Assembly: GCA_049643885.1 (NCBI GenBank)
Contig: JBARQV010000027.1
Span: forward strand, 3,294 to 67,293
Direction: 5' to 3'
Length of the DNA: 64,000 bases
Source of the DNA: Candidatus Omnitrophota bacterium
GTDB lineage: Bacteria > Omnitrophota > Gorgyraeia > Tantalellales > Tantalellaceae
The notes beneath the pieces are model-generated. The model did not search any database. It saw only the letters and a list, made by a program, of their open reading frames with translations, and had not been told where the DNA came from. Below, in pieces: positions 3,803-49,120 of the stretch; the stretch's first letter is position 1, and each line of letters begins with the position of its first letter. The position numbers were made by a program, and so were the translations under genes.

Positions 3803-5293
3803 ATGGATAAATTGTTGCGGAAACTGAAAGGAAGCGTTGATCTGCGGCGCGAGATCGAGGCCTTCAGGAGATATATAAAGAATTTTGCCTGGATAATCTT
3901 CCCAAAAGTTCCCGGCAGCGTGGATGAATTAAAGAAGACCGAAGTCGGGAAATATGTGGCGAAAGAGCTTACCAGGAAGGAAGAGATCCGGAAGGGATTG
4001 GAGGATATCCTCGCGGCTCTCAAGAAATGCAAAAGGCAGAACAGTTTTGAACAGTTCCGTTACGGGAAAAGGCGGATGGGCGTATGTTACCCGCTTGTTT
4101 CCGAAGGTAAGACCTTCGGGTATATCGTTCTTTGCGGATTGAGAAGGGCGGTTCCCGAGACCCTGCAGGCGCTTTTTACTTCGTATACCGACGTGGTTGT
4201 CAGGGAGACCCAGAAAGAACTTGAGCTGGAGGAGCTTAATAAGACGGTCAGGCCCAGGGCCATTGCACTTTCCACTGTTCACACTGTTCACAGGCTGATG
4301 GGTGCCACCTTGAACATCAACGAGCTTCTTCCCCGCATAGCGCGTCTTTCGCTGCAGGTGATGAGAGCCAATCGCTGTTCGATAAAACTTGTGGACAGGA
4401 GAAGAAAGGTCCTTTTGCCCAAGACTACCATTGATCTGAGGAAGAAAAAAGCGAAACTCAAGAAGGTTACTATAGGCAAGTATGCTCCGGGAAGGGCGGT
4501 AAAACAAGCCAGGTCTATAAGAGGCAAGAACTATCTCGCCTCGCCCCTGATCGAAGAGGAGGTATTAGGGGTCATAACTCTTTACGACAAGATAGAAGGG
4601 TCGGAATTCACGGCCTTTGACGAAGAGATCATGAAGACCCTTTCGGAACAGGCTGTCATCGCCATAAAGAACGCGCAGCTTTTCCAGGAGCAGGAGGATC
4701 TTACCCTGAGCAGTATCAAATGTATAGCCCAGCTTCTCGAGACCCGCCCGAGCGGATTTCACAAGGCTGAGGCTTCTTTCCTGAAACTGCTCAGCATCAT
4801 CGGCAGGAAATTCAACATGAATGAAAGCGAGATCAAGATGCTGCAGTACGCCGCGATGCTTCACGATGCCGGACAGATAAGCATACCGGAACGAGTGCTT
4901 CTCAAGAAAGGAGACCTTACCGGAAAAGAGTACGACATAGTCAAGATGCATCCCCTGAAAGGCGCGGACATATTGTCGAAATTCAGGCCGCTGAAGCCCA
5001 TTGTTCCTATTATCCTGTACCATCACGAAAACTTTGACGGGAGCGGTTATCCCAGGGGTTTGAAAAAAGACAACATACCGTTGGCTGCCCGGATCCTCGC
5101 GGTGGTAGCGTCATTCGAGGCCATGATCACAGAGAAACCATATCGCAAGGCGCTTTCGATAAGTTCGGCGGTGAAAGAAGTCGGGAAAAATTCAGGGACA
5201 CAATTTGACCCTAAGATCGTTGAAGAGTTTTGTGAAGCCGTCGCCAGGAAAGACGTAAAAAGACTTTTGGAGAAAGAGCTTGGTATGTTATGA
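3803..5293 (+). CDS. GAF-domain / HD-GYP-domain protein (putative c-di-GMP phosphodiesterase)
   Basis: The C-terminal region HDAGQISIP...HHENFDGSGYPRGL is the HD-GYP signature. The central part looks GAF-like. Confidence 0.8.
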   Translation: MDKLLRKLKGSVDLRREIEAFRRYIKNFAWIIFPKVPGSVDELKKTEVGKYVAKELTRKEEIRKGLEDILAALKKCKRQNSFEQFRYGKRRMGVCYPLVSEGKTFGYIVLCGLRRAVPETLQALFTSYTDVVVRETQKELELEELNKTVRPRAIALSTVHTVHRLMGATLNINELLPRIARLSLQVMRANRCSIKLVDRRRKVLLPKTTIDLRKKKAKLKKVTIGKYAPGRAVKQARSIRGKNYLASPLIEEEVLGVITLYDKIEGSEFTAFDEEIMKTLSEQAVIAIKNAQLFQEQEDLTLSSIKCIAQLLETRPSGFHKAEASFLKLLSIIGRKFNMNESEIKMLQYAAMLHDAGQISIPERVLLKKGDLTGKEYDIVKMHPLKGADILSKFRPLKPIVPIILYHHENFDGSGYPRGLKKDNIPLAARILAVVASFEAMITEKPYRKALSISSAVKEVGKNSGTQFDPKIVEEFCEAVARKDVKRLLEKELGML

Positions 5294-5553
5294 AAGAGAA
5301 GATCGAAAAAGTCGTTAAAGATAAACTTAGCAGAGAGATACTGACTTTTTTCTATCAGAATCAGTCAAGCATCGATACTGTCAGCGGGATCTCAGCGTGG
5401 GTCCGCAGCGACCGTAAAGAAGTCAAAACGGCGCTTGATAAGCTTGTCCAGCTGGGCATCCTTGAGCAGGACAGCATGGGCTCCACAAGAGGCTACTGCT
5501 ATACCCGGGACCCGAAAACCATGAAGATCGTCCGGGAGCTGATGAAAGAATAA
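5290..5553 (+). CDS. small hypothetical protein (possible winged-helix fold)
   Basis: 87-aa ORF translationally coupled to the upstream gene by ATGA overlap. No recognisable catalytic motif. Confidence 0.4.
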   Translation: MKEKIEKVVKDKLSREILTFFYQNQSSIDTVSGISAWVRSDRKEVKTALDKLVQLGILEQDSMGSTRGYCYTRDPKTMKIVRELMKE

Positions 5554-6224
5554 TGCGTAAACTGGCATTTTTCCTTCCCGTTGCAATAATCCTCGCCTTG
5601 TTATCCTGTTTCTTTTTACTGGATAATATCATAGTTTTTTCAATCGGCGCTTTGTCCGATATTACGATCTCATACGAGGCCGATAAGGGCAATGTCCTTA
5701 CAGGTTCGGAAATAAAAGGGTTACAGATAAAGAACAAAAAAGGGGGCTTTAACCTCTTTGCCGAAAAAGCTTATTTAAAGGTCAAGTTAAGGCAATCCTT
5801 CAAAGAGAAGAGGCTCGTGCTTGAAAGCAGTATGCAGGCAGTGAGGTTCGAGACCAAAATTAAAAGCACGACAGGTTCTCCGTCAGAAGATAATGTCATG
5901 GCCGCTCCATTTTCAGGAGACCGGAAATACGAACAAATGGCATTTACCGCTTACATTGACAAAATGGCCGTCAAGATCAGCGGTTTCAAGGCTATGTCGC
6001 CTGACGTAAGGATGATGGGAAATTGTGTATTTTTCTGGGGAAAGGATGATATATCCCTGGACCTGAATATCTCGTTTTCGCCTGAAGCCGCGTCCGTCTT
6101 CCCGGAAGAGATCAAAAATGAGTTCCTTTCGCCGGATGAAAATGGTTGGTACAGCACTGTGATCAGCTATAAGGGAAATGCGCTTATGCTCATGGCCTTT
6201 TATTCACTTACCATGTCACCGTGA
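5553..6224 (+). CDS. hypothetical membrane-anchored protein
   Basis: N-terminal transmembrane segment FFLPVAIILALLSCFFLL. Good codon structure but no recognisable domain. Confidence 0.4.
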   Translation: MRKLAFFLPVAIILALLSCFFLLDNIIVFSIGALSDITISYEADKGNVLTGSEIKGLQIKNKKGGFNLFAEKAYLKVKLRQSFKEKRLVLESSMQAVRFETKIKSTTGSPSEDNVMAAPFSGDRKYEQMAFTAYIDKMAVKISGFKAMSPDVRMMGNCVFFWGKDDISLDLNISFSPEAASVFPEEIKNEFLSPDENGWYSTVISYKGNALMLMAFYSLTMSP

Positions 6225-8365: not shown

Positions 8366-8812
8366 TTTTTATTGCCTGTCCATTCCTATCAGGATGTTCC
8401 ACTGCTTATTTAAAATGCTTGTTCTGCTTTTCCCGGGTAGATGATCAACCCTTCTTTAGCGGGGACGGTCAATTTCCCCGGCGAGGAAATTGTCCTCTAA
8501 AATTTTTTCACTCTCCCTCAAGACTTCGCCTTTCGGGATCCCTGCCCGCTCAAAAATTTAAAGCCCCGCTTCCGAAAGGTTAATCATCTACCCAGAACAA
8601 AAAATCCAAACTTTCTTCACTCAGATGTTCGACTTGTCAGGGTTACGGAAAGGTCCGGGGGTGTGTTCAGTGCGAGTTTCCAAAAAAAAAGCGATTTTAG
8701 GTCGCTTTTTTTTGGACTGTCTGAGCACGGAACACACCCCCGGGCCTTTTCAACATTCAGACAAGTCAAACATCTGATGAACGTTTAATAGGAACGGACA
8801 GGCAATAAAGAC
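8366..8812. repeat. large nested-palindrome non-coding element (possible MITE or structured RNA)
   Basis: Outer inverted repeat TTATTGCCTGTCCATTCCTAT (8369-8389) pairs with ATAGGAACGGACAGGCAATAA (8789-8809). Inner arms of ~60 nt (8622-8681 and 8714-8775) are ~75% identical in inverted orientation. The central hairpin is A9-GCGATTTTAGGTCGC-T8 (8682-8713). An additional inverted repeat GGGTAGATGATCAACC (8435-8450) pairs with GGTTAATCATCTACCC (8578-8593). Confidence 0.5.
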
Positions 8813-8886: not shown

Positions 8887-9978
8887 ATGAAGAAGGTACG
8901 CTTAGACCTTGCCGGAAGAAGCTATAATATCCTGATCGGTTCCGGGACAGCCGCTGAGTTGCCCCGCCAGATCCATTCTATGGCTTTTCATGGTCCGGTC
9001 GTGATCATTACTGATAAAATAGTCATGTCTAAGACGAACCGGGTTGTAGCGCCGGTCTTCAAGACCATCGAAAATGAGGTCATACGTGTTGTTGTGCCGG
9101 GCGGTGAAAGATCAAAGTCCATAGAAGTTTTTCAGGATACTATCCATGAAATATGCAAGAAGACAAAAAAACACCACCCTTTAGTGGTCGCGCTTGGCGG
9201 AGGCGTGGTAGGCGATCTTGGGGGATTTGTCGCAGCGACTTATAGGAGGGGAGTGCCGCTCATACATCTGCCCACTACGCTCTTGGCGCAGGTTGATTCC
9301 GCCATAGGTGGGAAAGTAGGCGTAGACCTCCCGGAGGCAAAGAACCTTGTCGGTGCGTTCTATCAGCCGAAGGCAGTATTGATCGATACTGATTTTCTGC
9401 ATTCGCTCCCCCGCAGGCAGATAAAAAACGGCATGGCCGAGATAATCAAATACGCCATCATAAAAAGCCGGCCGCTTTTTGAGTTTCTTGAAGATAATAT
9501 GGAAAAAGTCCTGCAGCTGAAAAAACGGGCCATTGAAAGGGTGATCCATGAATGCGTGGCCATCAAGGCGCGGGTCGTTGAAAAGGACGAGCTGGACAGG
9601 AAAGACGTCAGGATCGCTCTCAACTTCGGCCACACCCTGGGACACGCGATAGAAGCGGCTTCCGGATATTCGGAATCGTACAATCACGGGGAAGCCGTGG
9701 CCTTGGGTATGATCCTGGCCGGAGCGATGGCTTTCCGCCTGGACATGCTGAAGGAGAAAGACCTCGAGAGGATAAAAGATCTGATCAAAAGCGCCGGCCT
9801 TCCGGTGAAGATCCGGGGCGTCACGGTAAGGGACATCATGAACACACACGTTTACGACAAAAAATTCGTCACCGGGTCCAATCGTTTTGTCCTGCCGAAG
9901 AGGATAGGTTCGGTAGAAGTCGTCGAAGGGATCCCGGAGCTTTTGGTAAAGACCGTGCTTAAGAATCATGTCGAGTAA
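8887..9978 (+). CDS. aroB: 3-dehydroquinate synthase
   Basis: Contains GGGVVGDLGGFVAATYRRGVPLIHLPTTLLAQVDSAIGGKVGVDL and the HTLGHAIE metal-binding motifs. An in-frame alternative start lies at 8848. Confidence 0.85.
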   Translation: MKKVRLDLAGRSYNILIGSGTAAELPRQIHSMAFHGPVVIITDKIVMSKTNRVVAPVFKTIENEVIRVVVPGGERSKSIEVFQDTIHEICKKTKKHHPLVVALGGGVVGDLGGFVAATYRRGVPLIHLPTTLLAQVDSAIGGKVGVDLPEAKNLVGAFYQPKAVLIDTDFLHSLPRRQIKNGMAEIIKYAIIKSRPLFEFLEDNMEKVLQLKKRAIERVIHECVAIKARVVEKDELDRKDVRIALNFGHTLGHAIEAASGYSESYNHGEAVALGMILAGAMAFRLDMLKEKDLERIKDLIKSAGLPVKIRGVTVRDIMNTHVYDKKFVTGSNRFVLPKRIGSVEVVEGIPELLVKTVLKNHVE

Positions 9979-10438
9979 GAACGTATCCACGCTGCGGGTT
10001 TCATCTGCCCGAAAAGTCCAGTTCATAGATATCACTTCCGATATTTCTGATTTTGTCCGGAAAAGCGGCGTGGCCGACGGTATTTGTTTCATACACGTGC
10101 CGCACACCACGGCCGGTGTTACTATAAATGAAAATGCCGATCCCGATGTGGTCGCGGACATGATCACGGCGCTTGAACATATCGTGCCGTCACATCGCGG
10201 CTATCTGCACGCAGAAGGAAATTCGCCGGCTCATGTCAAATCATCGCTTATCGGATGTTCCGAAAAGATATTCGTAAGCGCCGGCAAGCTTCTTCTTGGG
10301 ACTTGGCAGGGAATATATTTCTGCGAATTTGATGGACCCAGATCACGAAAGGCCCACCTAAAGATTGTGGAAGGTAGAAATATGTCATCCCGGACCCGCC
10401 GAAGGCGGGATCCGGGAACAAATAAGATTATTATGTGA
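9968..10438 (+). CDS. YjbQ/UPF0047-family protein (secondary thiamine-phosphate synthase-like), with an atypical 18-aa C-terminal tail encoded by a repeat element
   Basis: The core matches UPF0047 (ITSDISDFVRKSG...HTTAGVTINENADPDV...GTWQGIYFCEFDGPR). The paralog at 15462 ends ...QIIGE, whereas this ORF runs on through the 10382-10463 element. Confidence 0.8.
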   Translation: MSSKNVSTLRVSSARKVQFIDITSDISDFVRKSGVADGICFIHVPHTTAGVTINENADPDVVADMITALEHIVPSHRGYLHAEGNSPAHVKSSLIGCSEKIFVSAGKLLLGTWQGIYFCEFDGPRSRKAHLKIVEGRNMSSRTRRRRDPGTNKIIM

Positions 10439-10463
10439 TCCCCGCTTTCGCGGGGATGACATA
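10382..10463. repeat. copy 1 of a hairpin-rich ~85-nt repeat element flanked by inverted repeats ATGTCATCCC...GGGATGACAT
   Basis: Matches 25818-25911 in its 5' ~65 nt: ATGTCATCCCGGA(C/T)CCGCCG(A/T)AGGCGG(G/A)ATCCGGGA(A/T)CAAATAA(G/A)A(T/A)TATTATGTGATCCC. It contains two internal hairpins. Confidence 0.6.
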
Positions 10464-10484
10464 TATTCCCTAACTAATAGTACA

Positions 10485-10886
10485 ATGAATACAGAAAAAA
10501 TCGAAATAAGAGCGAGATATCAGGAAACAGACCAGATGGGCGTAGTTTATTATTCTAATTACCTTGTCTGGTTCGAGATCGCTCGGACCGATTATTTCCG
10601 TAAAAGAGGAGTTGTATACAAAGAGTTAGAAGAAAGAGATAAAATATATCTTCCCGTGGTTGAGGCCTGCTGCAGGTACAGAGCGCCCATTAGATACGAT
10701 GATCTGGTTACGGTTGAAACCAAACTTACCGAAGCGAGCAAATCGCGGTTGACTTTTGAATATGAGGTAAAAAAAGAAGCGAAAGTTACGACTACAGGCT
10801 ACACCAAACACGTCTTTGTGAACGGCAGCGGAAAACCCATCCCCATACCGGAAAACATCAAATCCTCACTCGTCGGTCGTCGGTAG
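10485..10886 (+). CDS. acyl-CoA thioesterase, YbgC/4HBT (hot-dog fold) family
   Basis: The sequence EIRARYQETDQMGVVYYSNYLVWFEIARTDYF matches the 4-hydroxybenzoyl-CoA thioesterase family N-terminus. The true ATG is at 10485; the track ORF starts earlier, inside the repeat element. Confidence 0.8.
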   Translation: MNTEKIEIRARYQETDQMGVVYYSNYLVWFEIARTDYFRKRGVVYKELEERDKIYLPVVEACCRYRAPIRYDDLVTVETKLTEASKSRLTFEYEVKKEAKVTTTGYTKHVFVNGSGKPIPIPENIKSSLVGRR

Positions 10887-13649: not shown

Positions 13650-13680
13650 TTTCAGCGATGTTTTAAGTGGAACGACAGAA

Positions 13681-13716
13681 AAAGGGAGCGATTGGAAGAT
13701 CGCTCCCTTTTTTGTT
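13681..13716 (+). terminator. intrinsic terminator (AAAGGGAGCGAT-TGGAA-GATCGCTCCCTTTTTTG)
   Basis: Perfect 12-bp GC-rich stem followed by a T-tract. Confidence 0.7.
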
Positions 13717-13738
13717 TTGTAATGAAAACGGAGGAAAG

Positions 13739-14158
13739 ATGACGCCGAGCGAAGAACAGAACAAAAAAGAGGAAGAGGCGAAAGAGGTCGCGAAGCCGGA
13801 AGCGAAAGAAGAGGCTCCGAAAGAAGAGGCCCCGAAAGAAGAGGCCCCGAAAGAAGAGGCCCCGAAAGAGGAGGCTCCGAAAGAAGAGGCCCCGAAGGAG
13901 GAGGCTCCGAAAGAAGAGGCCCCCAAAGGGCGTACTCCTAAAAGCACCAAACCGCATAAACCTACCGAGTGTGCCGGTTGTGACAAGCCGCTAAGAAAGA
14001 AGCTGTGGTATTACAGGAACGATGCTTTCTATTGCACAAAGGCCTGCTTCGTGCGCAAGAAGGAAGAAGAGCGTAAAAAGGCCGAAGAAGACAGGAAGAA
14101 GGCCGAAGAAGAGGCGAAAAAAGCTGCCGAAGAAGCAAAACCAAAAGAAGCAGCGTAA
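13739..14158 (+). CDS. repeat protein: (EEAPK)x8 acidic tract followed by a TRASH/YHS-like 4-Cys zinc ribbon and a K/E-rich tail
   Basis: The motif CAGCDKPLRKKLWYYRNDAFYCTKAC fits the C-x2-C...YYFC-x2-C TRASH/YHS pattern. GGAGGA ribosome-binding site 7 nt upstream of the ATG at 13739. Confidence 0.6.
   Translation: MTPSEEQNKKEEEAKEVAKPEAKEEAPKEEAPKEEAPKEEAPKEEAPKEEAPKEEAPKEEAPKGRTPKSTKPHKPTECAGCDKPLRKKLWYYRNDAFYCTKACFVRKKEEERKKAEEDRKKAEEEAKKAAEEAKPKEAA
13808..13927. repeat. eight near-identical 15-nt tandem repeats (GAAGAGGC(C/T)CCGAAA) encoding EEAPK
   Basis: Read directly. Only third-position C/T variation is seen between units. Confidence 0.9.
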
Positions 14159-15448: not shown

Positions 15449-15461
15449 TGCTGCCTTGAAA

Positions 15462-15878
15462 ATGGTAATCACAAAATACCTCTCGATAGATACCAAGGGA
15501 TTCACCGATGTCATCGATATCACTTCTGAATGCCAGGACTTCATAGATTCATCGGGCTTAAAAAACGGCACCATTACTGTGTTTAACCCCGGATCTACAG
15601 GCGGCCTGACCACCATCGAATACGAACCGAATCTGGTGAAAGATCTGAAAGATGCCCTTGAGATCATTGCGCCGTCAGACAAAGCCTATGCGCATGGCCG
15701 GACATGGCACGATGACAACGGGTCAAGTCATATTCGCTCGTCACTGATGGGGCCATCCATATCTGTACCGTTCGTAAAAGGTGAACTGACCCTGGGGACC
15801 TGGCAGCAGATCGTATTGTGTGACTTTGATACCAGGGGGCGAAGGCGCAAACTTGTGGTGCAGATCATCGGAGAATGA
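15462..15878 (+). CDS. YjbQ/UPF0047-family protein (second paralog)
   Basis: Same motifs as 9968-10438 (ITSE...GSTGGLTTIEYEP...GTWQQIVLCDFD). The ATG at 15462 is preferred over the TTG at 15456. Confidence 0.8.
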   Translation: MVITKYLSIDTKGFTDVIDITSECQDFIDSSGLKNGTITVFNPGSTGGLTTIEYEPNLVKDLKDALEIIAPSDKAYAHGRTWHDDNGSSHIRSSLMGPSISVPFVKGELTLGTWQQIVLCDFDTRGRRRKLVVQIIGE

Positions 15879-25597: not shown

Positions 25598-25744
25598 ATG
25601 AATAAGGCACTGATATTTGTTTCTTTATTGCTTCTGATAGCTTTTATCGCGGGATGCGGAGAGACGATAAGGGGTGCGGCCAAGGACACGAATCGTATAG
25701 GCCAGGGCATCAGGAAGGTATTTGTATCCGATAGCACGAAATAG
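25598..25744 (+). CDS. entericidin EcnA/B-like small lipoprotein (48 aa; absent from the ORF track because shorter than 60 aa)
   Basis: MNKALIFVSLLLLIAFIAGCGETIRGAAKDTNRIGQGIRKVF has a lipobox plus the G-x-D-x4-G-x-I pattern of entericidins. Confidence 0.5.
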   Translation: MNKALIFVSLLLLIAFIAGCGETIRGAAKDTNRIGQGIRKVFVSDSTK

Positions 25745-25765: not shown

Positions 25766-25815
25766 GGCCGGAATTCAATGCCGAACAACCGGTAGTTCCG
25801 GCTCGTGTTGTTTTT
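25766..25815 (+). terminator. candidate intrinsic terminator (GGCCGGAA...TTCCGGC followed by a T-run)
   Basis: Hairpin plus T-tract after the entericidin-like ORF. Confidence 0.35.
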
Positions 25816-25817
25816 AA

Positions 25818-25911
25818 ATGTCATCCCGGATCCGCCGTAGGCGGAATCCGGGATCAAATAAAAATATTATGTGATCCCGGGTCTCGGCCTGCGGCCTCGC
25901 CCGGGATGACA
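25818..25911. repeat. copy 2 of the hairpin-rich repeat element (ATGTCATCCC...GGGATGACA)
   Basis: See 10382-10463. It ends 8 nt before the radical-SAM gene ATG. Confidence 0.6.
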
Positions 25912-25918
25912 AATTATC

Positions 25919-29868: not shown

Positions 29869-30107
29869 ATATCCAGATATCCCCAAAAAAAGCACAATTA
29901 AAAGTTTAATTAGCTAGATAGCGCCAAAAATCCCTCCATTTTTAATTAACCCAAATTTAATCAAATTCAAATAATTACTTAACGTGCATGCTATATACTT
30001 GAAGTGTATGGCGAATACATATATATATGTGTATTCGCTTGAAATACGTTGAAATGTTAGGTAAACTAAAAGAGTGTAGCAAAAGACGCTCTTTCTTCTT
30101 TGAAAAT

Positions 30108-30235
30108 TCGCGAAAGGCAAACCCCGTGAAAGCGGGGGGCGCAAAGCTTGAGAGCCTAAAGCCGTTGGCTATGGCAGTCAGTTGCCGAATGGGAAAAATT
30201 AAAAACCCATAGCTTCTCAGGCTATGGGTTTTTTG
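30108..30235 (+). promoter_or_regulatory. c-di-GMP-I (GEMM) riboswitch-like leader, copy 1, with terminator expression platform
   Basis: AAAGGCAAACC; P2 hairpin CCCCGUG-AAA-GCGGGG carrying a GAAA tetraloop; GGCGCAAAGC; tetraloop receptor CCUAAAG...CUAUGG. The arrangement is close to the Vibrio Vc2 class-I aptamer. A terminator follows at 30205-30235 (ACCCAUAGC-UUCUCAG-GCUAUGGGU-U6). Confidence 0.8.
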
Positions 30236-30248
30236 CTATATACGATGC

Positions 30249-33200
30249 ATGGTGAGGTTGGCAGAAATGAACAATAACAATTCTTTAAGAGTATGTATTA
30301 TTATCCTGGCAATGTTATTTGCCTGGACGAATTGTGTCTACTCTCTGCCGAAAGTCGACGAGGTCGTATCCGGCGAAGCAGAAGTAAAGATGGTCGATCC
30401 CAACACCATGCAGATCAATGCCACCGACAACACCATCATAAATTACCAATCATTTAACATCATGGAACACGAATCGGTTATCATCTCTCTCCCGAATTCA
30501 AGCAGCGAGATCCTTAACCGGGTGATAGGGCCTGACCGCAGCGACCTCTTTGGTAACCTGTCATGTAACGGGATATTTATCCTCGTGAACCAGAACGGGA
30601 TCTATGTGGGGCCGAACGCTAATATAGAAGCGGCAAGCGCGATCCTTTCGACAAGGGACATAACCGACTCCGATTTTATCGATGGGCAATATCTATTCCA
30701 GAAACTCTCCGATGAAGAGATGGACATGCTCCTCCTCAACGAGGGCACCATAAGGATCCAGGACGGCGGCTTCGGCGTCCTGATAGCCGGGGCGATAGAG
30801 AACAATGGTAAGATCATAGCCCCGTGCGGTAAGATAGTCCTGGCAGGGGGAGACGCCATAAAGCTTAACATGTCGGCGAATGGCCTGATCTCCGTCGCCA
30901 TCCTGGAGAAAACGGCTTCCAAAATATATGACCATGAAGGGAACCCCATACTTGACCAGATCAAGAATACCGGCGAACTTCGGGCGAACGGGGGCGCCGT
31001 TATTCTCAAGGCGGAAAGCGTAACCGATGTCTTTAGAAGCGCTATAAACCTGGAAGGGGTGGTCGAGGCCAACAGGGTAGAGGACAAAGACGGTGTTATA
31101 AGCATAGTGGCCGATAATGATGTAACGATAAACGCGGAAATGGCAGCAACTAGCATTGATATTAAGACTGAATATGATATTGACCTGGACGCTAATATCG
31201 TTGCTTCCGAAGGCGACATACTTCTTTTTGCCGATTATGACGGAGACGGGATCGGCAGCTTCAGGCAACACGGCGGCCTGATCGAGGCGACAGGTGAAGG
31301 GGATATTTATATCGAAGGCTCCGGGGAAATGGTCCTTGGGGCCGTCAAGACAGAGCTGGGTGCGATCAAGATAGGCACCCAAAGGGAGCCTTTTTCCATA
31401 ACGGGCGAACCTCATTATATCCATTCAAAGGGAGATTTTGAGATCACCGCGATGGATGAGGGCGAGGAGGTGACCACCCTCCATACCAGCCGGGGAGATG
31501 TCCTGAAATACAACACCACCGGCAAGGTGATCCTTGAGGCGGCGGACGGCAGGATCGAACAGCTGATCCAGGAGCCGTTGCCGGCGGGATATCTGGAACT
31601 GAAGGCCAGGACATTTGACGTTAATTCAGAAGCAGATGTTACAGTTATCAATGATATTGATAGTAATATTTATATTGAAAAGCTGATAGAGATCTCGGAA
31701 GATGTAGTTTCCCTGGAAGGCGAAACGACCGGCAGGGTCACGTATCTTATCTCGAATGATATTGTCCTCCAGACCCCTCATGACGTGGACACTGCCCCCG
31801 GGGTTATTATCCCGGGAGATAATGTCAAGATAACCGCCAGAAGAATAGGGTCAAACGACTCACCTGTGGGTATTTCTGCCAACCTCACCTATATCCATAG
31901 GATCCAGGGAGACATCGTCATCTCCGAGATCTGGGGTCTCGGGACAACAATATGCATCAGGGGTCCTGACCCGGATACGAACCCGGATAGCTGGGGAGCG
32001 ATTAATTTAAATAAAAATACAGACCTTATATTGGAGGCCTCTCAAGGAGGTCTTTTTATATCTGAAAATTGTGCTCTTCAAGCACAAAATCTCACATTAA
32101 TCGCAAGCCAGGGCATAGAAAATTACGGCTCTTTATTGGTCGAGAACGGAACCCTCACCCTTACGGCGGAAGGCGCCGTAATAAGCCTTGGCTCCTTAAG
32201 GGCCGAGACCCTTATAGAGGAGGGCGCCTCTTTTGTGGTCGGAGGAGAATATATAGTAGGCTACGCAACCGCCCGGAACGCAGATAACGCTGTAACACTT
32301 TATACGGGAAACTATTCAGGAGAAACCAGCGATACAGGCGACATTGCTGTCAAAAATAACAACATTATAACCCTGGTGGGAGACACTATATTCCGCGCTG
32401 ACAGCGACCAGAATGGGGTCGGGGGTTTTAAGCCTCAAGTTGGCTCCAGCATTGTAGGAGGGGGATATAATCTTTGGATATATGGTTCCGAGAGCTCAAC
32501 CCTTCGGCAGATAACAGGCGTCGGGACTCTTTCGCTATATAGATCCTACGCAAGCTCAAATCCCTATTATATTGATTATAGTGCCTGGAGCGTGGGGAAT
32601 TTGATCATTGGCGCAGGTATTTCGTTAGATATCCAAGGTGTGGGTTTAACATTAAGTGGAAATTTTACAAATAACGGCACATTTGTGTCAAATAACGCCG
32701 TCATATTCAGCGGCGCCGGTACGTCAAATATTACAGGAAATATCACATTTAACAATCTTACCTGTACTACCGCCGGCAAGATCCTGAAATTCAAAGAAGG
32801 CCAGACTTTTACCATAAACGGGACCCTTGCCCTGACAGGAACATCCGGCAATGAGATCGTTCTCGACAGCCAGAACGGTTCAACGCAATTTACGTTTAAA
32901 GTGGCCAGCGCCCAGAGCGTCAGCTACATAGTTGTCGCAAACTCTAATGTCGACGATACTTCAGGCGGCAATATAACCGCCTCTAACTCTTATAATGACG
33001 GCAATAACGATACCGGACCCACGGGACGTTACTGGGCAGGGCTTCCCGCGGCAACATATTCTGTTTACGGGGCAGTATATTCCGACCAGGGTTCTACGCT
33101 GATGGGCGCGGGTGTGAATATAGTTCTGGCGAGAAACGGAGTGGTCACGGCCAACACAAATACGCTTGCGAGCGGCCAGTACGCTTTTCACGGACGAGCT

Positions 33201-36200
33201 TTCTCAGCCAATGATGTGGTTTTGATCTACATAAACAATAGTACCACAAACGGTAATGTGGTAGTAATTGTAGATGCTGCCAGGATAACCGGGGCGGATA
33301 TATACGGGAACACTGCTATCGCCAGGCACCAGACGGCGGGACCCGTCACGAACGCGACATTTTCTACAGCTAAAGGCTCCATGACGGATACGGATATAAT
33401 CTATTCGGTGTCCGGTTCCAACTTGGAACTGAATGAGGGAGTGAGCTTTGTGGTATGGACAGGCGATACATATACTCCGGGTGGAAATCTTTATTGCAAC
33501 GATGTTGTCGTGCAGTCAAGCGCTATATTCAATGCCGCCGCGGGCTCTACAATAAGCGCCTCAGGCGATTGGGCGAACAGCGGCACGTTCAATCCCAGCA
33601 CATCGACCGTTATCCTTACCGGCGGAAGCGTGCAAACGCTGACTTCAGGGGGGTCTTCGTTCAACAACCTTACGATTGCGGGCGTAGGCACGTACAGGCT
33701 TCAGGATGCCCTGAATGTTACCGGCACCCTTGCTATATCAGGGTATTCCTACAAAAAAGCGATCGTTATAGATAATACAAAAGTAAACGCTGATCTGACG
33801 AATTTTCCGGTCCTTTTCAGCGTTACCGACAGCGATCTGGCGGTGACAGGCAGCGGCGGATATGTAACGAGTTCCAACGGTTGTGACATTATCTTTACCG
33901 ATCACGCCGGGGTCCAGCTGGACCATGAGGTCGAGTCATACAACCCGGCGACCGGACAGATCATCGCATGGGTGAAGGTGCCGAGCCTGTCAAATTCCAC
34001 AGACACGACGATCTACGTCCATTACGGTAACAGCGATATCATAACCTCGCAGGAGAACCCGACAGGCGTATGGAGCAACGGTTTTGCCGCGGTCTGGCAT
34101 CTTGGTTCATCCATAAATGATTCGACAAGCAACGGCATCACAGGCACAAATAACGGGACAACGGAAGAGACGACTATCGTAAAGGTGGGCACAAGCACTT
34201 ATTTTAACGGTTCAGAATCCGATTATATCAATTATGGCGAGCCGAGCGCGCTCGATATAAGTGGGAACAACCCGATCACCATCGAAACCTGGGTATACTT
34301 TAACTCGGTCGCTGCAAACTATCAGGATTTCTTCTCAAAAGGTGACACGCAATACCACTTACAGAAAAATAACGCAGATCCCGGGGTAATACAATTTGTT
34401 ATTTATGACGGAGACTGGCAGCTTGTCCAGGCGGACAGCAATGTTTCAACAGGAACCTGGTATCATGTTGTAGGGACATATAATGGAGTAAGCGGCGGGG
34501 CACTGGAGCTTTATATAAATGGCTCCAAGCAGACAGGCAGCGACACAGCTGCATCGATCAACAATACGGCTTATAGTGTCTATATGGGCGAGAACAGCCA
34601 GTCAACCGGCCGCTACCTGGACGGATATATGGACGAAGCCCGCATATGCAACGCCTACAGGACTGGTGGCTGGATACAGACCGAGCACAATAACCAATCC
34701 TCTCCTTCGACGTTTTATCCTAATTACACTTCGGAAGCACGGACCACCGGTGACAGTGCGACGCTTTGTCTGAATGGCAAGAACCTCTCTACCGCAACAC
34801 TCAATAATACCGGGACCCTGAGGCTCCTGGGGGCAGAAACGGTAAGCATAACCACGATGGATACAGATTCAGGACTGGTTGATTATTATGGAGACGGTTC
34901 ATATACGGGACTGGCGGCGGGGGACAGCTACTTCGACCTTACGTTTTCGGGGACCGGGGTCTATACCCTTGATGCCGATCTGGACATAAACGGTGATCTT
35001 TCCTTTACGCCTACATTCCAGTACAGGAAGGAAATAACCATTTACGCCTCACAGGTGGATGCGGACGTGACCGATTTTCCGGTCCTTTTCAGCGTTACCG
35101 ATGCTGACCTGATCGATAACCTGATGCACGACGCGAATTACACTATCAAGTTCACCAACGCGACCGGGACCGAGCTGCCATATGAAGTAGAGTATTACAA
35201 TAACGCAACAGGCCAGCTGATAGCATGGGTCAAGGCCGATTCATTATCCTCGAGCACCAATACAACGCTGTGGCTGTATTACGGCTCGCTGGAAGCCGAC
35301 TCCACGGAAGCAGCGACCAGCGTGTGGAGCAACAATTATTCGGCCGTGTGGCACATGAGTGAAGCGTCGGGGACTATCTATAATTCAACATCTTATCCCA
35401 ACAACGGGACCGCCGCCGGGGGCATTACTTACGGCGCAGCCGGAAAAATAGACGGATCTGTCAGCCTTGACGGCGTTGATGATCGGATAAACTGCGGGTG
35501 GGATCCAAGCCTGTCGCCCTCGAATGCGATCACCGTTTCCCTTTGGACGCAGAATGCCGTATCTCCGGCGCAATATGACGGCATCCTCGGCAAGACAAGC
35601 AGCTTTAAATGGGACGACGGGTACGGCATGTTTTACAACAGCTCAACCGAGGTCCGTTTTTATGTATCAAATTACAGCGCGAATGTCGCTTACGCGTCCT
35701 TGACGCCCACGAACATGAATTATATTGTCGGCACGTTTGACGGTTCGAATGTGCGGATATATGTAAATGGCGTAGAGGGCACGGCAGATCCGTATGCAGG
35801 CACCATATCATCAACGGCAGCCATGTTAGTGCTGGGCCAGTTATCGGGAACTGCATACAATATCAACGGCAAGCTGGATGAAGTCCGCGTTGCCGGCACA
35901 TGGCGTCCGTCCGGCTGGATCTCAACAGAATTCAAAAACCAGAATTCTCCCGGCACGTTTTTCGGCACCGGAAGCGAGATCAGCGGCGGCGCTACCATAA
36001 ACGCAGGAAGCTATGACATCAACAGTGCAGGCGATTTTGATCTTACAAGCGGCATATTTGATGCCGGTACGGGCACGGTTATATTTGACGGGGTATCCAC
36101 CCAGACCCTGACCACGGCCTCATATGATTTTTACGGTTTGACCGTCTCCAACGCCTCCTCAAACGGTGTTCAGCTTGCAGATGCCCTTACCGTTACGAAC

Positions 36201-39200
36201 GCTCTCACCATATCGACGAATGGCGTTTTTGATCTCCAGGATAATAATATGACGGCAACAGGAGCTGTCTTTTCGAACGACGGCACGCTCAGGCTCGTCG
36301 GATCGCAGGCGATAACGGGCCTTGTTATGGACACCGATTCGGGCACGGTGGAATATACCGGCGACGGTGATGCGACTCAGGAGACCTTTACGATCAAGGA
36401 TTTCGGCGCTATCGACTATTATCACCTTTTGATAAATGACACTAATGCCACGACCGCCAACCGGGACATTATTTCCGTAGGCGTGGGAACAAACCTGAAC
36501 GTCGACGGGGATCTTACAGTTTCCGGGGGAACGTTGAATATTAACGGGCAAAGCGTCAACATCGCCGGGAATTTCAGCGTGAGCGCGAGCCCGGACGCGA
36601 GATATCAGCAGGGCGGCGGCAGCGATAATACCTTCGATGGCAGCGGTAATGCCACCATTGATACCGGGGGAACAGATGACGACCACGATCTTACCCGCTT
36701 CATCGTGGACAAGTCCGGCGGAGCCGTTCTTACCGTGATAAACAATGGCGTGGATATAAATGAGAGCCTTACGATCACCAACGGTGTTCTTAGCTTGAAT
36801 GGCCAGAATATCACAACGACCACCACATTTTCAAATTCCGGAACCCTGCGTCTTCAGGGGAATGAGAGCGTGTCTTGGACCACGAACGACACTGATTCAG
36901 GCAAATGGGAGTATGTTGGTGATGGCGATTCCCTGGCGGACACATACACGATCAAGGATTTCGGGACCCCGGATTATTATAATCTGACCATCAATTCTAC
37001 TGACGGCGTGACCGACACATTCCAGCTCGGCGCCGCATTGGATGTTGACAGAAACCTCACCATTACTTCCGGCCGGCTGGATGCCAATAGCCAGAACATC
37101 AATCTTGCCGGCAACTGGATCAAAACCGGCGGGACCTTTGACAGCGGAACTAATACCGTTACATTTGACGGGGGGAGCGCGCAGACCATGAATTCCGGCG
37201 GCACGGATACAGGAAGCGATTTTAACAACATCACCGTATCCGGCTCAACGGTCCAGTTAATAGATAACGCGGTCGATATCGACGGCACTTTGACCATAAA
37301 TTCAGGCAAGGTCTTTGACCTTAACGGCCAGGACTTCACCCTCGCGACACTTGATAACAGCGGTACCTTGCAGCTCGAGGGGACGGAGACGGTCGCGATA
37401 ACCACGATGGATACCGACTCAGGAGAGGTTCTCTATACCGGATCGGGTTCTTATACAGGCCTTGCGGCGGGGGATAACTATTACGATCTTACATTTGCCG
37501 GGATCGGGAGTTATGCTCTGGATGCCGCTTTAGACGTAAACGGCTCTCTTGCAATATCAGGTTATTCCTATAAAAAAGCGATCGTATTGGAAAGCGACCA
37601 GGTAAGCGGCACTGCCGACCTGACGGATTTTCCCGTGCTATTTAGCGTTACGGATACCGATTTGAGGACAACGGGCAACGGTGGGCAGGTAACGGATCCC
37701 AACGGTTACGATATTATCTTTGTGGATTCCAACGGGGACCAGCTCGACCACGAGGTCGAAGCGTACAACGCCGCAACCGGGCAATTGATCGCGTGGGTAA
37801 AGGTTTCCGCGCTGGATTATAATGATGACACGACAATCTATATTTATTACGGCAACAGCAACATTACAAGTTCCCGGGAGAATGCTTCCGGCGTGTGGAG
37901 TAATTCTTACGCGGCTGTATATCACCTTGGCGAAGCCGGCACCGGAACGGCAGGCGATTACCAGGATTCCACTTCAAACAGTAATGATAGCGTGAGCACG
38001 AGCAACCAGCCTTCACAGACAACCGGCAAAATCGACGACTACGGCCAGTATTTTGACGGGTCTGAGGCGATACGCATTGCCGATGCTTCTTCGCTTGAGC
38101 CGACATCCATGACCATTTCATGCTGGTTCAAAAGAGACGGAGCCCAAAAGGACTGGACCAAGATCGTGCATAAGGGGCAGGGGAATAGCCCGTTCGGTTC
38201 TTATATACTGCAATTGAGCGCGGATGAGACGGAAGCAGAGTTCCAGGTAGCCAAGACGACCCCGGACTATGCAAAGGCAAGCAGCGGGACCGGGGCTGTC
38301 GCGGATGATACCTGGTACTATCTGGTAGGGACCTACGACGGGACCACCTACGACGGGATTTTATATATTAACTCCGCAAATATCGATAGTTTTAACGATA
38401 CCGCCCCTCTTTATTATGAAACCACCGGGCTTGGGATCGGAGGGCCCGGTTATAACGCTTATAATGATGCGGCAATCGGAGTTGTAGACGAAGTCAGGAT
38501 ATCGAGTGCCGTCCGCACCCAGGGCTGGATCACCACTGAATACAACAACCAGAATACTCCCTCAGCGCTTTATCCGACTTATACGTCAGGGAGCGGCCAG
38601 ACTGCCGGCAGTGCCGGAACGCTGGACGCAGCCGGATATAACATGAACATCGGCGGCAGCTGGACGAACTCAGGGACGTTCACGCACAACAATAATACGG
38701 TCATATTTGACGCGAACGATGCCGATAATACCATTACTTCCGGCGGCTCTTCCTTTAATAATGTCACGATCTCGAGCGGCACCTATGCCATGCAGGATGC
38801 CATGGTCATAGACGGCAATCTTACCACATGTCCCTGGGCGGATGAGTATTCTTACAGGAAGACGATAACAATAGAATCGGATTACGTCGACGCGGATGTG
38901 AGCGACTTCCCGATGCTCTTCAGTGTCACCGACACGGATTTGATAGACAACGTGATGAGCGGTTCGAACTACACGATCAAGTTCACCAATTCAACCGGGA
39001 CAGAGCTTCCTTATGAAGTTGAATACTACAATAACGGGACAGGCCAGCTTATCGCCTGGGTGAAGGCGGATTCCCTGTCAGGCAGCACCGATACGACCCT
39101 TTATCTTCACTACGGCTCGAGCGGCACTGCTTCTACGGAAAACCCGAGTGGAGTATGGAGCAATGGATATGAGGCGGTTTGGCATTTAACGGATGCGGCC

Positions 39201-42200
39201 GACTCGACCGGCGCGGGAAACGATCTCACCAACACCAACGTTACATTTGCCGGGGCCGATCCTAAGATAGGTGATTACGCGTTGTTTGATGGAGACGGTG
39301 ATCAATTAGAAGACGGAGACGGCGAGTCCTATATCAACGGATTGTCGGCAATAACCGTTTCCATGTGGGTCAATTCGGATATCACCGGAACCGACAGGGG
39401 ATTTTTTGATACCGAAGCGCCTGACGGGAATGATGACGTTACAAACCTAAGATATGATGACGCGGGCGCAAGCGGAGGAGCGGATGATTGCCTCAAAGTA
39501 AGCATTAACGCCACTACCGGTGAACAGCAGGCGTTGGAGAGTTCTGCGCTTAGCCAGACAACCAGCTGGCAGTATATCGTCCTTACATGGTCATCCGGGG
39601 TTGATGTTGCGCTATATCTGGACGGTTCGCCGGATACGCCTTCTTACTTGGAGGCTGGCGCTAGCAGCGGCACCTTGCAGAACGCCACTACCGTTTTAGT
39701 GGGTAAAGGCCCTAAAGACGGCGCGGCGCAGAGTTGGGACGGGCTGATCGATGAGGTGCGTGTTTCCAGCATAGCCCGGCCCTCCGGATGGATATCTACG
39801 GAACACAACAACCAGGACAACCCTTCGGCGTTTCACTCGACCGGGAGTGAGGGTTCGTCAGCTCCTGTTCTTGACTTGAGCGGGCAGAACCTCACCGTGA
39901 CCGGCACATTAGATAATTGCGGAACTATTAAGCTCGAGGGCGGCGAGACAGTGAACCTTACCATGGACACCGATTCAGGGCTGGTGGAATATTACGGAGC
40001 CGGCTCTTACGCAGGCCTTGTCGCCGGCGATGAGTATTATGATGTTAAGTTTTCCGGCAGCGGCAATTTTGACCTGGACGCGAACCTGCAAATAAACGGC
40101 GATCTTAATATCACGGGCTCCGTGACAGGGGACGCCGCGGGATATTCTTATTATAAAACAGTGACTATAAATTATAACTATGTAGACGATGATCTGACCA
40201 ACTTCCCGATGCTTTTTATTGTCGCCGACAGCGATCTGGCGACCGTAGTGAATGGCGGAAACGTGAACAGCTCGAGCGGCTACGATATAATCTTCACCGA
40301 CACAAGCGGAAATCAGCTTGACCACGAGATCGAGAAATATGATCCGGAGACAGGCGAAGTAGTGGCATGGGTCAGGATCCCCTCACTGTCCGGTTCAGTT
40401 AACACGGCCATTAATGTACATTATGGTAACGGTTCAGTGACCGCTTCCCAGGAAAATGTCAGCGGTGTTTGGGGAACTATCTATGACGGAGTTTGGCACC
40501 TGAATGACGACTTGCAGGATTCCTCGTCCACCGCCAATAACGGCACAAACAACGGATCAGCTGACGCGACCGGCAAGATAGCCGATGGGCAGTCTTTTAA
40601 CGACGCGGAGAGCGACTATATCGCGGTAGGGTCCGACCTTAGCCAGTGGCTGGGCAGCGACGGGTATGTATCCTTATGGATCAATACGACACAGACAGGC
40701 AATGATACGATGTGGCAGGCGCCCGGTGTGACCGGCGTGGAGCAATCAGGAGGCGCTAATGACATTTTCTACGGGTGGATAGATGCTTCCGGCCAGATAG
40801 GCGTCCAGGCAGGGAACACCGCCGGAGCGAAGAGCGCTGCAGACATAAATGACGGCGCGTGGCATTACATAGCCATGACGCGGAACGCGACTACAGGCGA
40901 AGTAAATATGTATGTAGATGACAACACGGTTGTTACGGCCACTTCGGAGACGGGGGCAAAAACAAATGCATTTTACAGTTTCGGGAGGATAGAGGACACA
41001 GGGGGCACCCCGGTCTATTTTAACGGCACGCTTGATGAGATCCGCGTTACGGATTCCATAAGACCGGCCGAGTGGATATCGACCGAATACAATAACCAGT
41101 TTTCCCCGGGAACGTTTTTCGGGACCGGAGGAGAGACAAGGAACGCCCCGGTCCTCAATGCCGGTAGCTATAACATCAATATAGCCGGCAATTACTCGCA
41201 GGACGAAGGGACTTTTGTCGCCCCGTCAAGCGTTCTCGGTCTTACAGGCAATTTCGACCTCACGGGAGGCACGTTCAACCACAACAGCGGCACTATCGCT
41301 TTCAACGCGACCGATACGGACAACACGCTCAACTTGAACGGCACCGCTTTCAATAACGTGAGGTTTGTTAACACTGCCACATATGCGCTGAACAGCGACC
41401 TCGATGTCGACGGCACGCTTACTTTCGCGCAGGAATCAGGATACGGAAAAGAAAAGACCATAACGATAGACCATGATCTGGTCGCGGAGGACCTGACCGA
41501 TTTTCCGATCCTTTTCAGCGTAACAGACGGCGACCTGGCCACGGTCGCCAACGGCGGTGACGTCGCTAACGCCAACGGCTACGACATCATATTCACCGAC
41601 GCGAACGGCACGCGGCTTGACCATGAGATAGAGAGCTACGATCCCGTTTCCGGCCAGATAGTCGCCTGGATAAAGGTTCCCGCGGTCTCTGCTGGCGCGG
41701 ACACGGTCATATACATGAAATACGGCAATGATGACATAACTACCTCCCAGGAGAACATCTCAGGTGTTTGGGACTCAAGTTTTGTAGGTGTGTGGCACAT
41801 GGATGAGACTTCCGGACTTGTATATGATTCTACATCCTACAATAATGACGGCACTGTATTTGCTTTTGCGCTCGGGGAAGTGAACAGGAGCGAGACCGGA
41901 AAGATAGACGGGGCCAATGATCTTGATCTTGCAAGCTATCCGAACGATCCCGCATATATTTTAATGACTGATTCCGGCAGCTTGGACATCACGGGAGAAC
42001 TCACGATATCGGCCTGGATAAATGCCGATGACCTTACGAACAGCAGGACGATCGTAGCGAAAGGTGCTTCGCTGACAAGCGTGAACTACGCTTTAAGCAC
42101 GAACGGCACGGAAGCTCAGTTCGGTTTCTATAACGGCGGAAATCGAACGTATGTTACCTCGAGTGCGGGGATTTCGACAGGCACCTGGTATTATGTTGCT

Positions 42201-48688: not shown

Positions 48689-48967
48689 CGGAACCTCCTT
48701 TATTTGGCATGCCAAGCGAGACAGGGTTAAAGAAAATAAAGAGCAATTTTATATTGTTAATATATCACTTCTAAGCGGTTTTTGCAATGAGATTTACAAG
48801 AATGCCTTCGGGGCGAGAGACCCAGAAAGGTGTTCTGTGGGGGGGGCGAAGAAGAAAATGTTAAAAAAACAAAAGGCAGTAGAGGTTTTCTTATAATATT
48901 ACTTACCATGTGCTATACTTTAACTGGAGCTACATATACGCGTTCTTTGGGATATTTGTATAAGTAA

Positions 48968-49095
48968 CGATAAAGGCAAACCTTGCGAAAGCAGGGGACG
49001 CAAAGCTCAAGAGCCTAAAGCCGGGAGGCTATGGTAGTCAGTTGCCGAAACCGAGAATCCGTGACCCATAGTCTGTCCAGGCTATGGGTTTTTTA
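48968..49095 (+). promoter_or_regulatory. c-di-GMP-I (GEMM) riboswitch-like leader, copy 2, with terminator expression platform
   Basis: AAAGGCAAACC; P2 CCUUGCG-AAA-GCAGGG, which differs from copy 1 by compensatory changes (C-G to U-A, and U.G to C-G); GGACGCAAAGC; CCUAAAG...CUAUGG. Terminator ACCCAUAG-UCUGUCCAG-GCUAUGGGU-U6 at 49064-49095. Confidence 0.8.
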
Positions 49096-49120
49096 TTTTA
49101 GAGGTAGATAGGTGCCTGAA

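Follow-up and report, generated by a model that had tools for sequence, protein, structure and literature searches.

Two short repeated elements, which we designate copy 1 and copy 2, lie upstream of unrelated genes in a stretch of 64,000 nucleotides (nt) from a Candidatus Omnitrophota bacterium (assembly GCA_049643885.1, contig JBARQV010000027.1, positions 3,294 to 67,293), hereinafter the window, by which we mean this whole stretch. Copy 1 (window positions 10382-10462) overlaps the 3′ end of a yjbQ gene and precedes a thioesterase gene that starts with the ATG at 10485, whereas copy 2 (25818-25912) is separated by only 6 nt from the ATG (25919) of a radical S-adenosylmethionine (SAM) gene. 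Both copies are on the plus strand and have 69 nt in common at 87% identity. The comparative data presented below indicate that the two copies very probably belong to a family of palindromic repeats of the repetitive extragenic palindromic (REP) type that shows variable occupancy between species and is arranged as head-head dimers. Repeats of this kind are known; what is new here is the family and its host phylum, not the kind of system.

The original prediction, which was made from the sequence alone, described two near-identical hairpin-containing copies, each followed by an AT-rich stretch and a second GC-rich hairpin, bounded by inverted termini and located just 5′ of a gene start. All of these features were recovered. 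A 33-nt core pattern matches the window exactly twice, at copies 1 and 2, with 0.00 matches expected from 100 shuffled sequences. Likewise, a covariance model of the unit (R1), run over the whole 64 kb with filters off, finds four units, that is, two pairs, and no degraded extras. The first hairpin reads TCCCGGA(C/T)CCGCC-GAA/GTA-GGCGG(G/A)-A-TCCGGGA in the two copies, the ends of which are the inverted termini ATGTCATCCC...GGGATGACA. The fold energies are -48.7 kcal/mol for copy 1 and -63.4 kcal/mol for copy 2 (z-scores of -7.4 and -8.8, respectively, against shuffled controls), and the reverse complements fold about as well as the forward strands. The box ATGT[C/G]ATCCC occurs at four places in each copy, two of them forward and two inverted, which gives a pair two ways of folding, into two separate hairpins or into one long one; for copy 2, the long hairpin is the fold of minimum energy.

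Unit architecture and covariation of the stems

Each copy consists of an alpha unit on the plus strand and a beta unit on the minus strand, with the TGTC ends facing outward (Table 1), and the tags are on the outside in all 35 distinct pairs that we collected from the window species and its relatives. Read on its own strand, a unit has the form (AAATA)-TGTC-ATCCCGGR, followed by an inner stem, a GNA loop, the return arm, a bulged A and then YCCGGGAT-CA(A/C)AT. The tag directly before the stem is TGTC in 74 of the 75 listed units and CGTC in the remaining one (at L075; labels of this form denote related loci), and AAATA is conserved before each TGTC, on both ends of a pair. The outer stem, ATCCCGGR/YCCGGGAT, comprises 8 bp, with the model pair 7-90 being U-A in 57 of 57 units and the pair 6-91 being A-U in 39 of 57. 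Between the arms of this stem lie 16-70 nt that accommodate a second, variable stem of 5-7 bp, the GNA triloop and the conserved bulged A. The loops on the tag strand are C-GAA-G, C-GTA-G or C-GCA-G, and some units carry tandem G-A mismatches around a GCGAAGC core; we take C-GNA-G loops and GCGAAGC-core units to be unusually stable DNA mini-hairpins. The tail that follows ...GGGAT/C is CAA(AT), CAC(AT) or CCC(AAT). Units of 42, 44 and 49 nt occur, and the two units of a pair are separated by a 9-nt spacer with the consensus AAAAtTATT in eight split pairs (the window copies and sister-species loci), or by a longer AT-rich spacer in a third species.

Under the R1 model, the units of the window score about 61-64 bits on their proper strand (40.2 bits for the shortened beta unit of copy 1), compared with 16-25 bits on the other strand. 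The second hairpin, which had initially appeared to be specific to each copy, is a shared component: the beta unit of copy 2 represents the second unit as it is conserved across the family, with near-identical units in L012, L014, L015 and L054, and that of copy 1 is a shortened version of it.

Evidence on the nature of these units comes from the pattern of change in their stems. Among 14 hand-picked units, 87.6% of the alignment cells are paired, 7 of the 15 base pairs have changed on both sides, and none of 500 shuffles performed as well. In the larger set of 58 distinct units, the alignment of which was itself fitted to the covariance model, 91.1% of the cells are paired and 9 of the 15 pairs show double changes, compared with at most 56% pairing in slid controls. 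This set contains 126 cells with double changes and only 5 G-U cells, and one-sided variation was seen in no pair. Moreover, when the units are folded with DNA parameters, the two strands of each do not differ in stability. The scarcity of G-U (in DNA, G-T) intermediates, together with the equal stability of the strands, points to a palindrome at the level of DNA and not to selection on a single transcript. The stem changes are compensatory on both strands and thus preserve the hairpins as true palindromes in the DNA.

Table 1. Positions of repeat units and adjoining features in the window and in the L054 scaffold
Feature	Sequence	Position	Strand	Description
Copy 1, alpha unit	window	10382..10423	+	A-TGTC tag; 8-bp outer stem ATCCCGGA/TCCGGGA(a); inner stem CCCGCC/GGCGGG; GAA loop; bulged A; tail CAAAT; R1 61.5 bits on +, 15.9 on -
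Copy 1, AT-rich spacer between the inverted units	window	10424..10432	.	AAGATTATT
Copy 1, beta unit, inverted and shortened	window	10433..10462	-	ATGTCATCCCCGC-GAAA-GCGGGGATCACAT on the minus strand; R1 40.2 bits on -
TGA ending the YjbQ frame, inside the element	window	10436..10438	+	foot of the beta hairpin
Stretch between the element and the thioesterase ATG	window	10463..10484	+	22 nt, ATATTCCCTAACTAATAGTACA; absent from the 1-nt junction of the sister species
Conserved hairpin and T-rich tract, outside the element	window	25767..25815	+	follows the 48-aa lipoprotein-like gene (25598-25744); copy 2 lies directly 3′ of it; from alignment with L052 and L053
Copy 2, alpha unit	window	25818..25859	+	inner stem TCCGCC/GGCGGA; GTA loop; bulged A; tail CAAAT; R1 63.2 bits on +
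Copy 2, spacer	window	25860..25868	.	AAAAATATT
Copy 2, beta unit	window	25869..25912	-	tTGTCATCCCGGG-CGA-GGCC-GCA-GGCC-GAGA-CCCGGGATCACAT on the minus strand; R1 64.5 bits on -
REP pair	L054	506-607
Lone beta unit	L054	1215-1258
REP pair	L054	5427-5553		30-nt insert in the alpha loop

Occurrence and variable occupancy in Omnitrophota

The repeat is present at many sites in at least three related Omnitrophota species, which together contain the 35 distinct pairs along with singletons and half-units. A scan of 185,579 species genomes with a two-box pattern yielded five exact matches in one other Omnitrophota metagenome-assembled genome (MAG), JBAROI01; this sister species, the contigs of which are syntenic with the window and the YjbQ protein of which is 74% identical, has six pairs. 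An ENA scaffold from the window's own species (L054) adds three sites within about 9 kb upstream of the window start (Table 1), which brings that species to five sites in about 74 kb. A relaxed pattern applied to the JGI metagenomes revealed a third species (contigs with the prefixes Ga0163203_ and Ga0208325_) with about 25 pairs; over most genes its proteins are approximately 50-86% identical to those of the window, L054 or JBAROI, and the gene order is kept on L057, L071 and L118. The strict two-box pattern had no matches in the JGI metagenomes, and none was found in the viral contigs searched. When element-derived peptides were used as a protein query for open reading frames (ORFs) overlapping other copies, none of the 100 candidates scored, and a literature search by sequence string returned primers only. 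All the sites seen are intergenic or overlap ORF ends, and the genes downstream of the copies are unrelated (thioesterase, radical SAM, SIS, thioredoxin, exonuclease III and others). Nine of ten hand-checked sites are co-oriented with transcription, a proportion from which we claim no orientation bias given that the automatic gene calls on the metagenome contigs were unreliable.

Comparison of orthologous junctions reveals which sites are filled in which species. The yjbQ-thioesterase junction is filled in the window species and empty in the sister species (L048-L051), where only 1 nt separates the two genes (GGT TAG G ATG). The site upstream of the radical SAM gene, filled in the window, is empty in L052 and L053, both of which have the small lipoprotein gene and the first of which also retains the hairpin and T-rich tract. 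Conversely, the Asp23/SIS and SIS/CTP_transf junctions are filled in L054 and empty in L057, the CTP_transf/ThiD2 junction is filled in L057 and empty in L054, and two junctions corresponding to window positions 13.6-14.2 kb are filled in L071 and empty in the window. Because the occupied junctions differ from species to species, the copies have been gained or lost as discrete units of DNA. Insertion, which the original prediction had suspected for copy 1, best explains the two copies in the window, since the orthologous junctions in relatives are without the element. Three syntenic species in which different junctions are occupied make a clean comparative set.

Some features of these neighborhoods stand apart from the element. 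The 48-aa lipoprotein-like gene upstream of copy 2 (MNKALIFVSLLLLIAFIAGCGE...), which is below the ORF-listing length, is conserved in L052 and L053 and has no Pfam match; a simple terminator scan made no call at the hairpin and T-rich tract that follow it. Within the ORF at 13667-14158, a 15-nt tandem repeat of at least nine copies (13773-13952) encodes (EEAPK)n.

One consequence of an insertion is seen at yjbQ. The ORF at 9968-10438 encodes 156 aa, and its frame passes through the alpha hairpin and on to a TGA inside the element, which gives the protein the tail RNMSSRTRRRRDPGTNKIIM; 20 codons separate the position of the relatives' stop from this TGA. The UPF0047 domain (residues 21-133) is complete without this tail, the paralogue at 15456-15878 (140 aa) is devoid of it, and among the YjbQ homologues listed the lengths are 118-141 aa plus one 272-aa fusion, with the closest homologues (60-75% identity) mostly 136 aa long. 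The exact 156-aa form is recorded only from Omnitrophota MAGs of the window species. In the stop region, the window reads GGT AGA AAT ATG TCA versus GGT TAG G ATG in the sister species. The same junction sequence is present in three aligned NCBI MAG assemblies. The identical 156-aa product and both units at this site are also found in a fourth MAG contig, as well as in an independent ENA scaffold; the extension is therefore not an assembly slip. The Arg-rich tail thus stands as a derived, element-encoded addition, as had been proposed for an 18-aa extension (20 aa in the present comparison of homologue C-termini). The 22 nt between the element and the thioesterase start were probably brought in by the insertion or acquired afterward. 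In some relatives of the 9968-10886 region, YjbQ and the 4HBT thioesterase are encoded as a single 272-aa fusion (P0015). Given that the two genes are fused or 1 nt apart in relatives, the REP insertion in the window splits a pair that elsewhere is tightly coupled or fused. It also explains the spurious-looking 20-aa YjbQ tail, and similar ORF extensions, in annotation.

Rearranged copies are found as well. Truncated alpha half-units all end at GAAGGCA, and those in L015 form three repeats at a 33-nt period; more specifically, L015 (1032-1260) and L014 (99-225) contain 33-nt tandem copies of the alpha 5′ half that are cut after GAAGGCA and rejoined to AAAATA-TGTC. Recurring as it does at independent loci, this breakpoint could mark a point of cleavage or template switching. 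A left-flank target motif of the form GAAG...AAATA, initially suggested by eight copies, was discarded, because with more copies only AAATA proved to be general and the GAAGGCA cases turned out to be truncated half-units.

A second repeat occurs in the same regions. Arrays of the 7-nt motif (GTATTGN)n number 20 in 103 kb (third-species loci L057, L058, L062, L074, L078, L080, L098 and L110, and L054 at 610-640 and 1260-1290); 8 have a REP unit no more than 15 nt away and the remainder are isolated, at least one of these (L058) having a GGAGG-like stretch directly 3′. In the window's species, a single CGCAATAC copy is found between a REP pair and the GAGGG of the next gene. We considered these arrays as a third module of the element and, with 12 of the 20 far from any unit, treated them as a separate repeat.

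Approximately 3.5 kb upstream of the window start, the 5160-5620 region of L054 contains what appears, when read by eye, to be the 3′ end of a tRNA gene (...GGTTCGATTCCCTTCACTCGCTCCA) and a terminator. Two partial copies of the last ~13 nt of this putative tRNA, at ~5380 and ~5600, bracket the REP pair d5 and look like scars of old integrations at a tRNA. Within the window, a 442-nt element (8368-8809) is delimited by 22-nt inverted repeats (95% complementary) and consists of two nested long hairpins around an A8-GCGA...TCGC-T8 core that resembles a bidirectional terminator (RNA fold of -200 kcal/mol, z of -15). It is present in all assemblies of the window species, the yjeF_N-aroB spacer being just 95 nt in the sister species (L048), and has no Rfam match. 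Finally, two c-di-GMP-I riboswitch aptamers (30106-30189 and 48965-49049; 75 and 80 bits) are each followed, after about 60 nt, by a giant ORF (30249-44420, of 4723 aa, and 49112-55366, of 2084 aa, respectively), and these ORFs share repeated segments.

Alternative explanations and possible modes of movement

Given the inverted termini, the original prediction had likened the element to a miniature inverted-repeat transposable element (MITE). In the classic form of this explanation, the copies would be internally deleted insertion sequences (IS) mobilized by a DDE transposase acting on the ATGTCATCCC terminal inverted repeats, with duplication of a TA target. What stands of this comparison is its substance, a small repeat with inverted termini that is mobile or recombining: every copy has the terminal inverted repeats, presence and absence vary between species, and in 11 of the 35 pairs the same dinucleotide, most commonly TA, is found at both flanks. 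However, a direct flanking repeat of at least 3 nt is present in none of the 35 pairs, and TA, being self-complementary, could just as well belong to a slightly longer inverted repeat, given that both ends have a conserved AAATA foot. Neither a transposase-like ORF nor a longer element with these ends, from which the copies could descend, was found in the loci examined. Moreover, the architecture is that of a modular REP dimer, the single units and half-units of which stand alone, and the internal stems co-vary so as to stay paired, a pattern that would not result if a dead IS were decaying at random. We therefore regard the classic MITE as an improbable explanation, and the name fits only loosely.

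A functional RNA, also raised at the outset in the guise of a small RNA (sRNA), would be a cis-regulatory leader, an attenuator or an sRNA upstream of particular genes, one version of which invokes an 18-codon Arg-rich leader peptide (MSSRtRRRR...) combined with alternative pairings of the boxes. The window copies do precede start codons by 6-22 nt on the sense strand, the four boxes do permit two alternative folds, and an 18-codon ATG...TGA frame is open in both window copies. Nevertheless, the genes downstream are unrelated to each other, the orthologous genes of relatives manage without the element, and the leader peptide is not conserved, as units differ in length (42, 44 or 49 nt) and the frame shifts accordingly. 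Rfam gave no match, whether at the gathering threshold or at a relaxed E-value (the highest score below threshold was 20 bits, where 35-114 would be required), and no terminator or promoter consensus is apparent at the copies, with no Rho-independent site called at either (the flanks are ATATTCC and AATTATC). The equal folding of the two strands and the Watson-Crick character of the stem changes, with almost no G-U cells, are at odds with selection on a transcript and leave the likeness to an sRNA unsupported. A regulatory RNA is accordingly about as improbable as the MITE. The least credible proposal is that the repeat is a passive target of site-specific recombination, similar to integron attC or to phage/IS110 targets such as Neisseria dRS3 and not spreading by itself: the imperfect palindrome with a conserved extra-helical base, its location between gene "cassettes" and the inclusion in the CGTC-1 class of the dRS3 repeats, which serve as integration sites, are in its favor, but the attC core sites (RYYYAAC/GTTRRRY) were not found on inspection of both window copies, the flanking genes are syntenic housekeeping genes and not cassettes, neither an integrase nor an IS110-like ORF stood out among those listed for the window and L015 (only six window ORFs were scanned against Pfam), and the viral contigs are without matches.

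Several points also weigh against a REP-type family with variable occupancy. The empty sites come from species with 63-74% protein identity, so that the exact insertion junctions are not reconstructable, and at any single site loss in the relatives may formally account for the difference. A plain insertion would keep the T of the TAG, and the loss of the yjbQ stop requires one further base change. The copy counts refer to about 74 kb of the window species plus related loci and are not genome-wide totals. A scan for ORFs with HUH/Y1 motifs, a weak test at the level of regular expressions, found no match in the window and ~250 kb of related loci. Furthermore, according to the literature, genes for tyrosine transposases do not have CGTC-type REPs at their flanks, and these REPs are not known to have an associated transposase; in view of this, a step of single-strand transposition is an analogy only.

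With that proviso, a scheme of movement can be sketched by analogy with REP/REPIN and IS200-type elements (a REPIN being a pair of inverted REP units). The units probably act as single-stranded DNA hairpins, for which the very stable C-GNA-G triloops, the conserved bulged A and the 5′ AAATA-TGTC foot would be well suited, and a trans-acting protein would probably recognize these hairpins and copy them into A-rich intergenic DNA. Half-units and singletons would then probably arise by hairpin-induced slippage or recombination. We view movement by such single-strand recognition as possible, although somewhat doubtful. A pair inserted in an operon is probably co-transcribed, in which case its strong RNA structure (-49 to -63 kcal/mol) would be expected to uncouple or dampen the translation and decay of the flanking genes; the effect on the once-abutting yjbQ and thioesterase genes would probably be a side effect and not the action of a designed regulator. 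In Escherichia coli, the expression of a gene is lowered when its stop codon is followed by a REP at a distance of no more than about 15 nt. With the new yjbQ stop located at the foot of the beta hairpin, the output of YjbQ may be similarly reduced.

A more far-reaching, and unlikely, possibility is that an unrecognized hairpin-specific DNA enzyme, shared between phyla or transferred across them, copies TGTC/CGTC units. The scaffold common to Omnitrophota, soil Alphaproteobacteria and a Planctomycetia MAG (the TGTC foot, the ATCCCGGA stem, the bulged A and the GNA loop), together with the Watson-Crick double changes and the fixed GAAGGCA break in Omnitrophota, are what suggest this idea. If it is true, the small genomes of Omnitrophota could reveal the enzyme through gene co-occurrence. 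In any case, compact genomes that host a family of active appearance are a sensible choice for a search for the mover of the large TGTC/CGTC class of REPs. On the practical side, such repeats could contribute to the fragmentation of MAG assemblies.

Comparison with known repeat systems

Bacterial MITEs, such as the Correia elements of Neisseria, are approximately 80-135 bp long, have terminal inverted repeats, occupy intergenic regions, are co-transcribed with neighboring genes and can alter gene ends. The Omnitrophota element resembles them in size, terminal inverted repeats, intergenic location and the alteration of gene ends, and differs in that it is built of two autonomous palindromic units and not of IS ends, with co-varying stems and no target duplication of at least 3 nt.

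Parallels are also offered by REPINs, or bacterial interspersed mosaic elements (BIMEs), and their REP-associated tyrosine transposases (RAYTs). These systems share with the present family the two inverted REP units that can form one long hairpin, the remnant-like singletons, the lineage specificity and the variable occupancy (Bertels and Rainey, 2011, PMC3116915; Quentin et al., 2018, PMC6006769). In contrast, RAYT-linked REPs have the 5′ foot GT[AG]G in place of the TGTC of the Omnitrophota units, and a scan with regular expressions (again a weak test) detected no RAYT-like ORF in the window and ~250 kb of related loci.

The closest relatives appear to be in the CGTC-tagged superfamily, one of two REP superfamilies described, which includes Neisseria dRS3 and Rickettsia RPE-4/RPE-6 (Di Nocera, De Gregorio and Rocco, 2013, BMC Genomics 14:522; PMC3733652). 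These repeats are stem-loops with an unpaired terminal CGTC (or the variants TGTC and CCTC), an 8-9 bp stem in which A and T come first and a short tail, approximately CCA, opposite the tag; they mostly form head-head dimers with conserved spacers, are located between co-directional genes, sometimes overlap ORF ends and thereby add 20-30 residues, and occur as tandem or clustered partial copies (PMC3733652). The Omnitrophota family agrees with this description in the terminal tag, the 8-bp AT-first stem, the short opposite tail, the head-head dimers with their conserved spacers, the intergenic or ORF-end position and the tandem partial copies. The position of the tail is the same and its sequence is a variant (CAA, CAC or CCC vs. 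CCA), the tag is TGTC with a single exception, and a conserved AAATA precedes it. A further difference concerns the loop, which is of 4 nt in CGTC-1 and of 5 nt in CGTC-2 to -4 (PMC3733652), whereas the Omnitrophota units have a structured insert of 16-70 nt in its place. On account of this mismatch, the Omnitrophota repeat falls in none of the families CGTC-1 to -4 and would be a further family of the superfamily. Units from soil Alphaproteobacteria and from a Planctomycetia MAG found in the genome scan have the same scaffold, including the bulged A, and score 26-51 bits on the Omnitrophota model, a resemblance that is inflated because these loci were chosen for containing an 11-nt box.

The CGTC class has been reported from five phyla, with Omnitrophota not among them (PMC3733652), and a 2025 survey of REPs makes no mention of Omnitrophota. 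The present analysis extends the TGTC/CGTC-tagged class of REPs to a phylum of very small, mostly uncultured cells.

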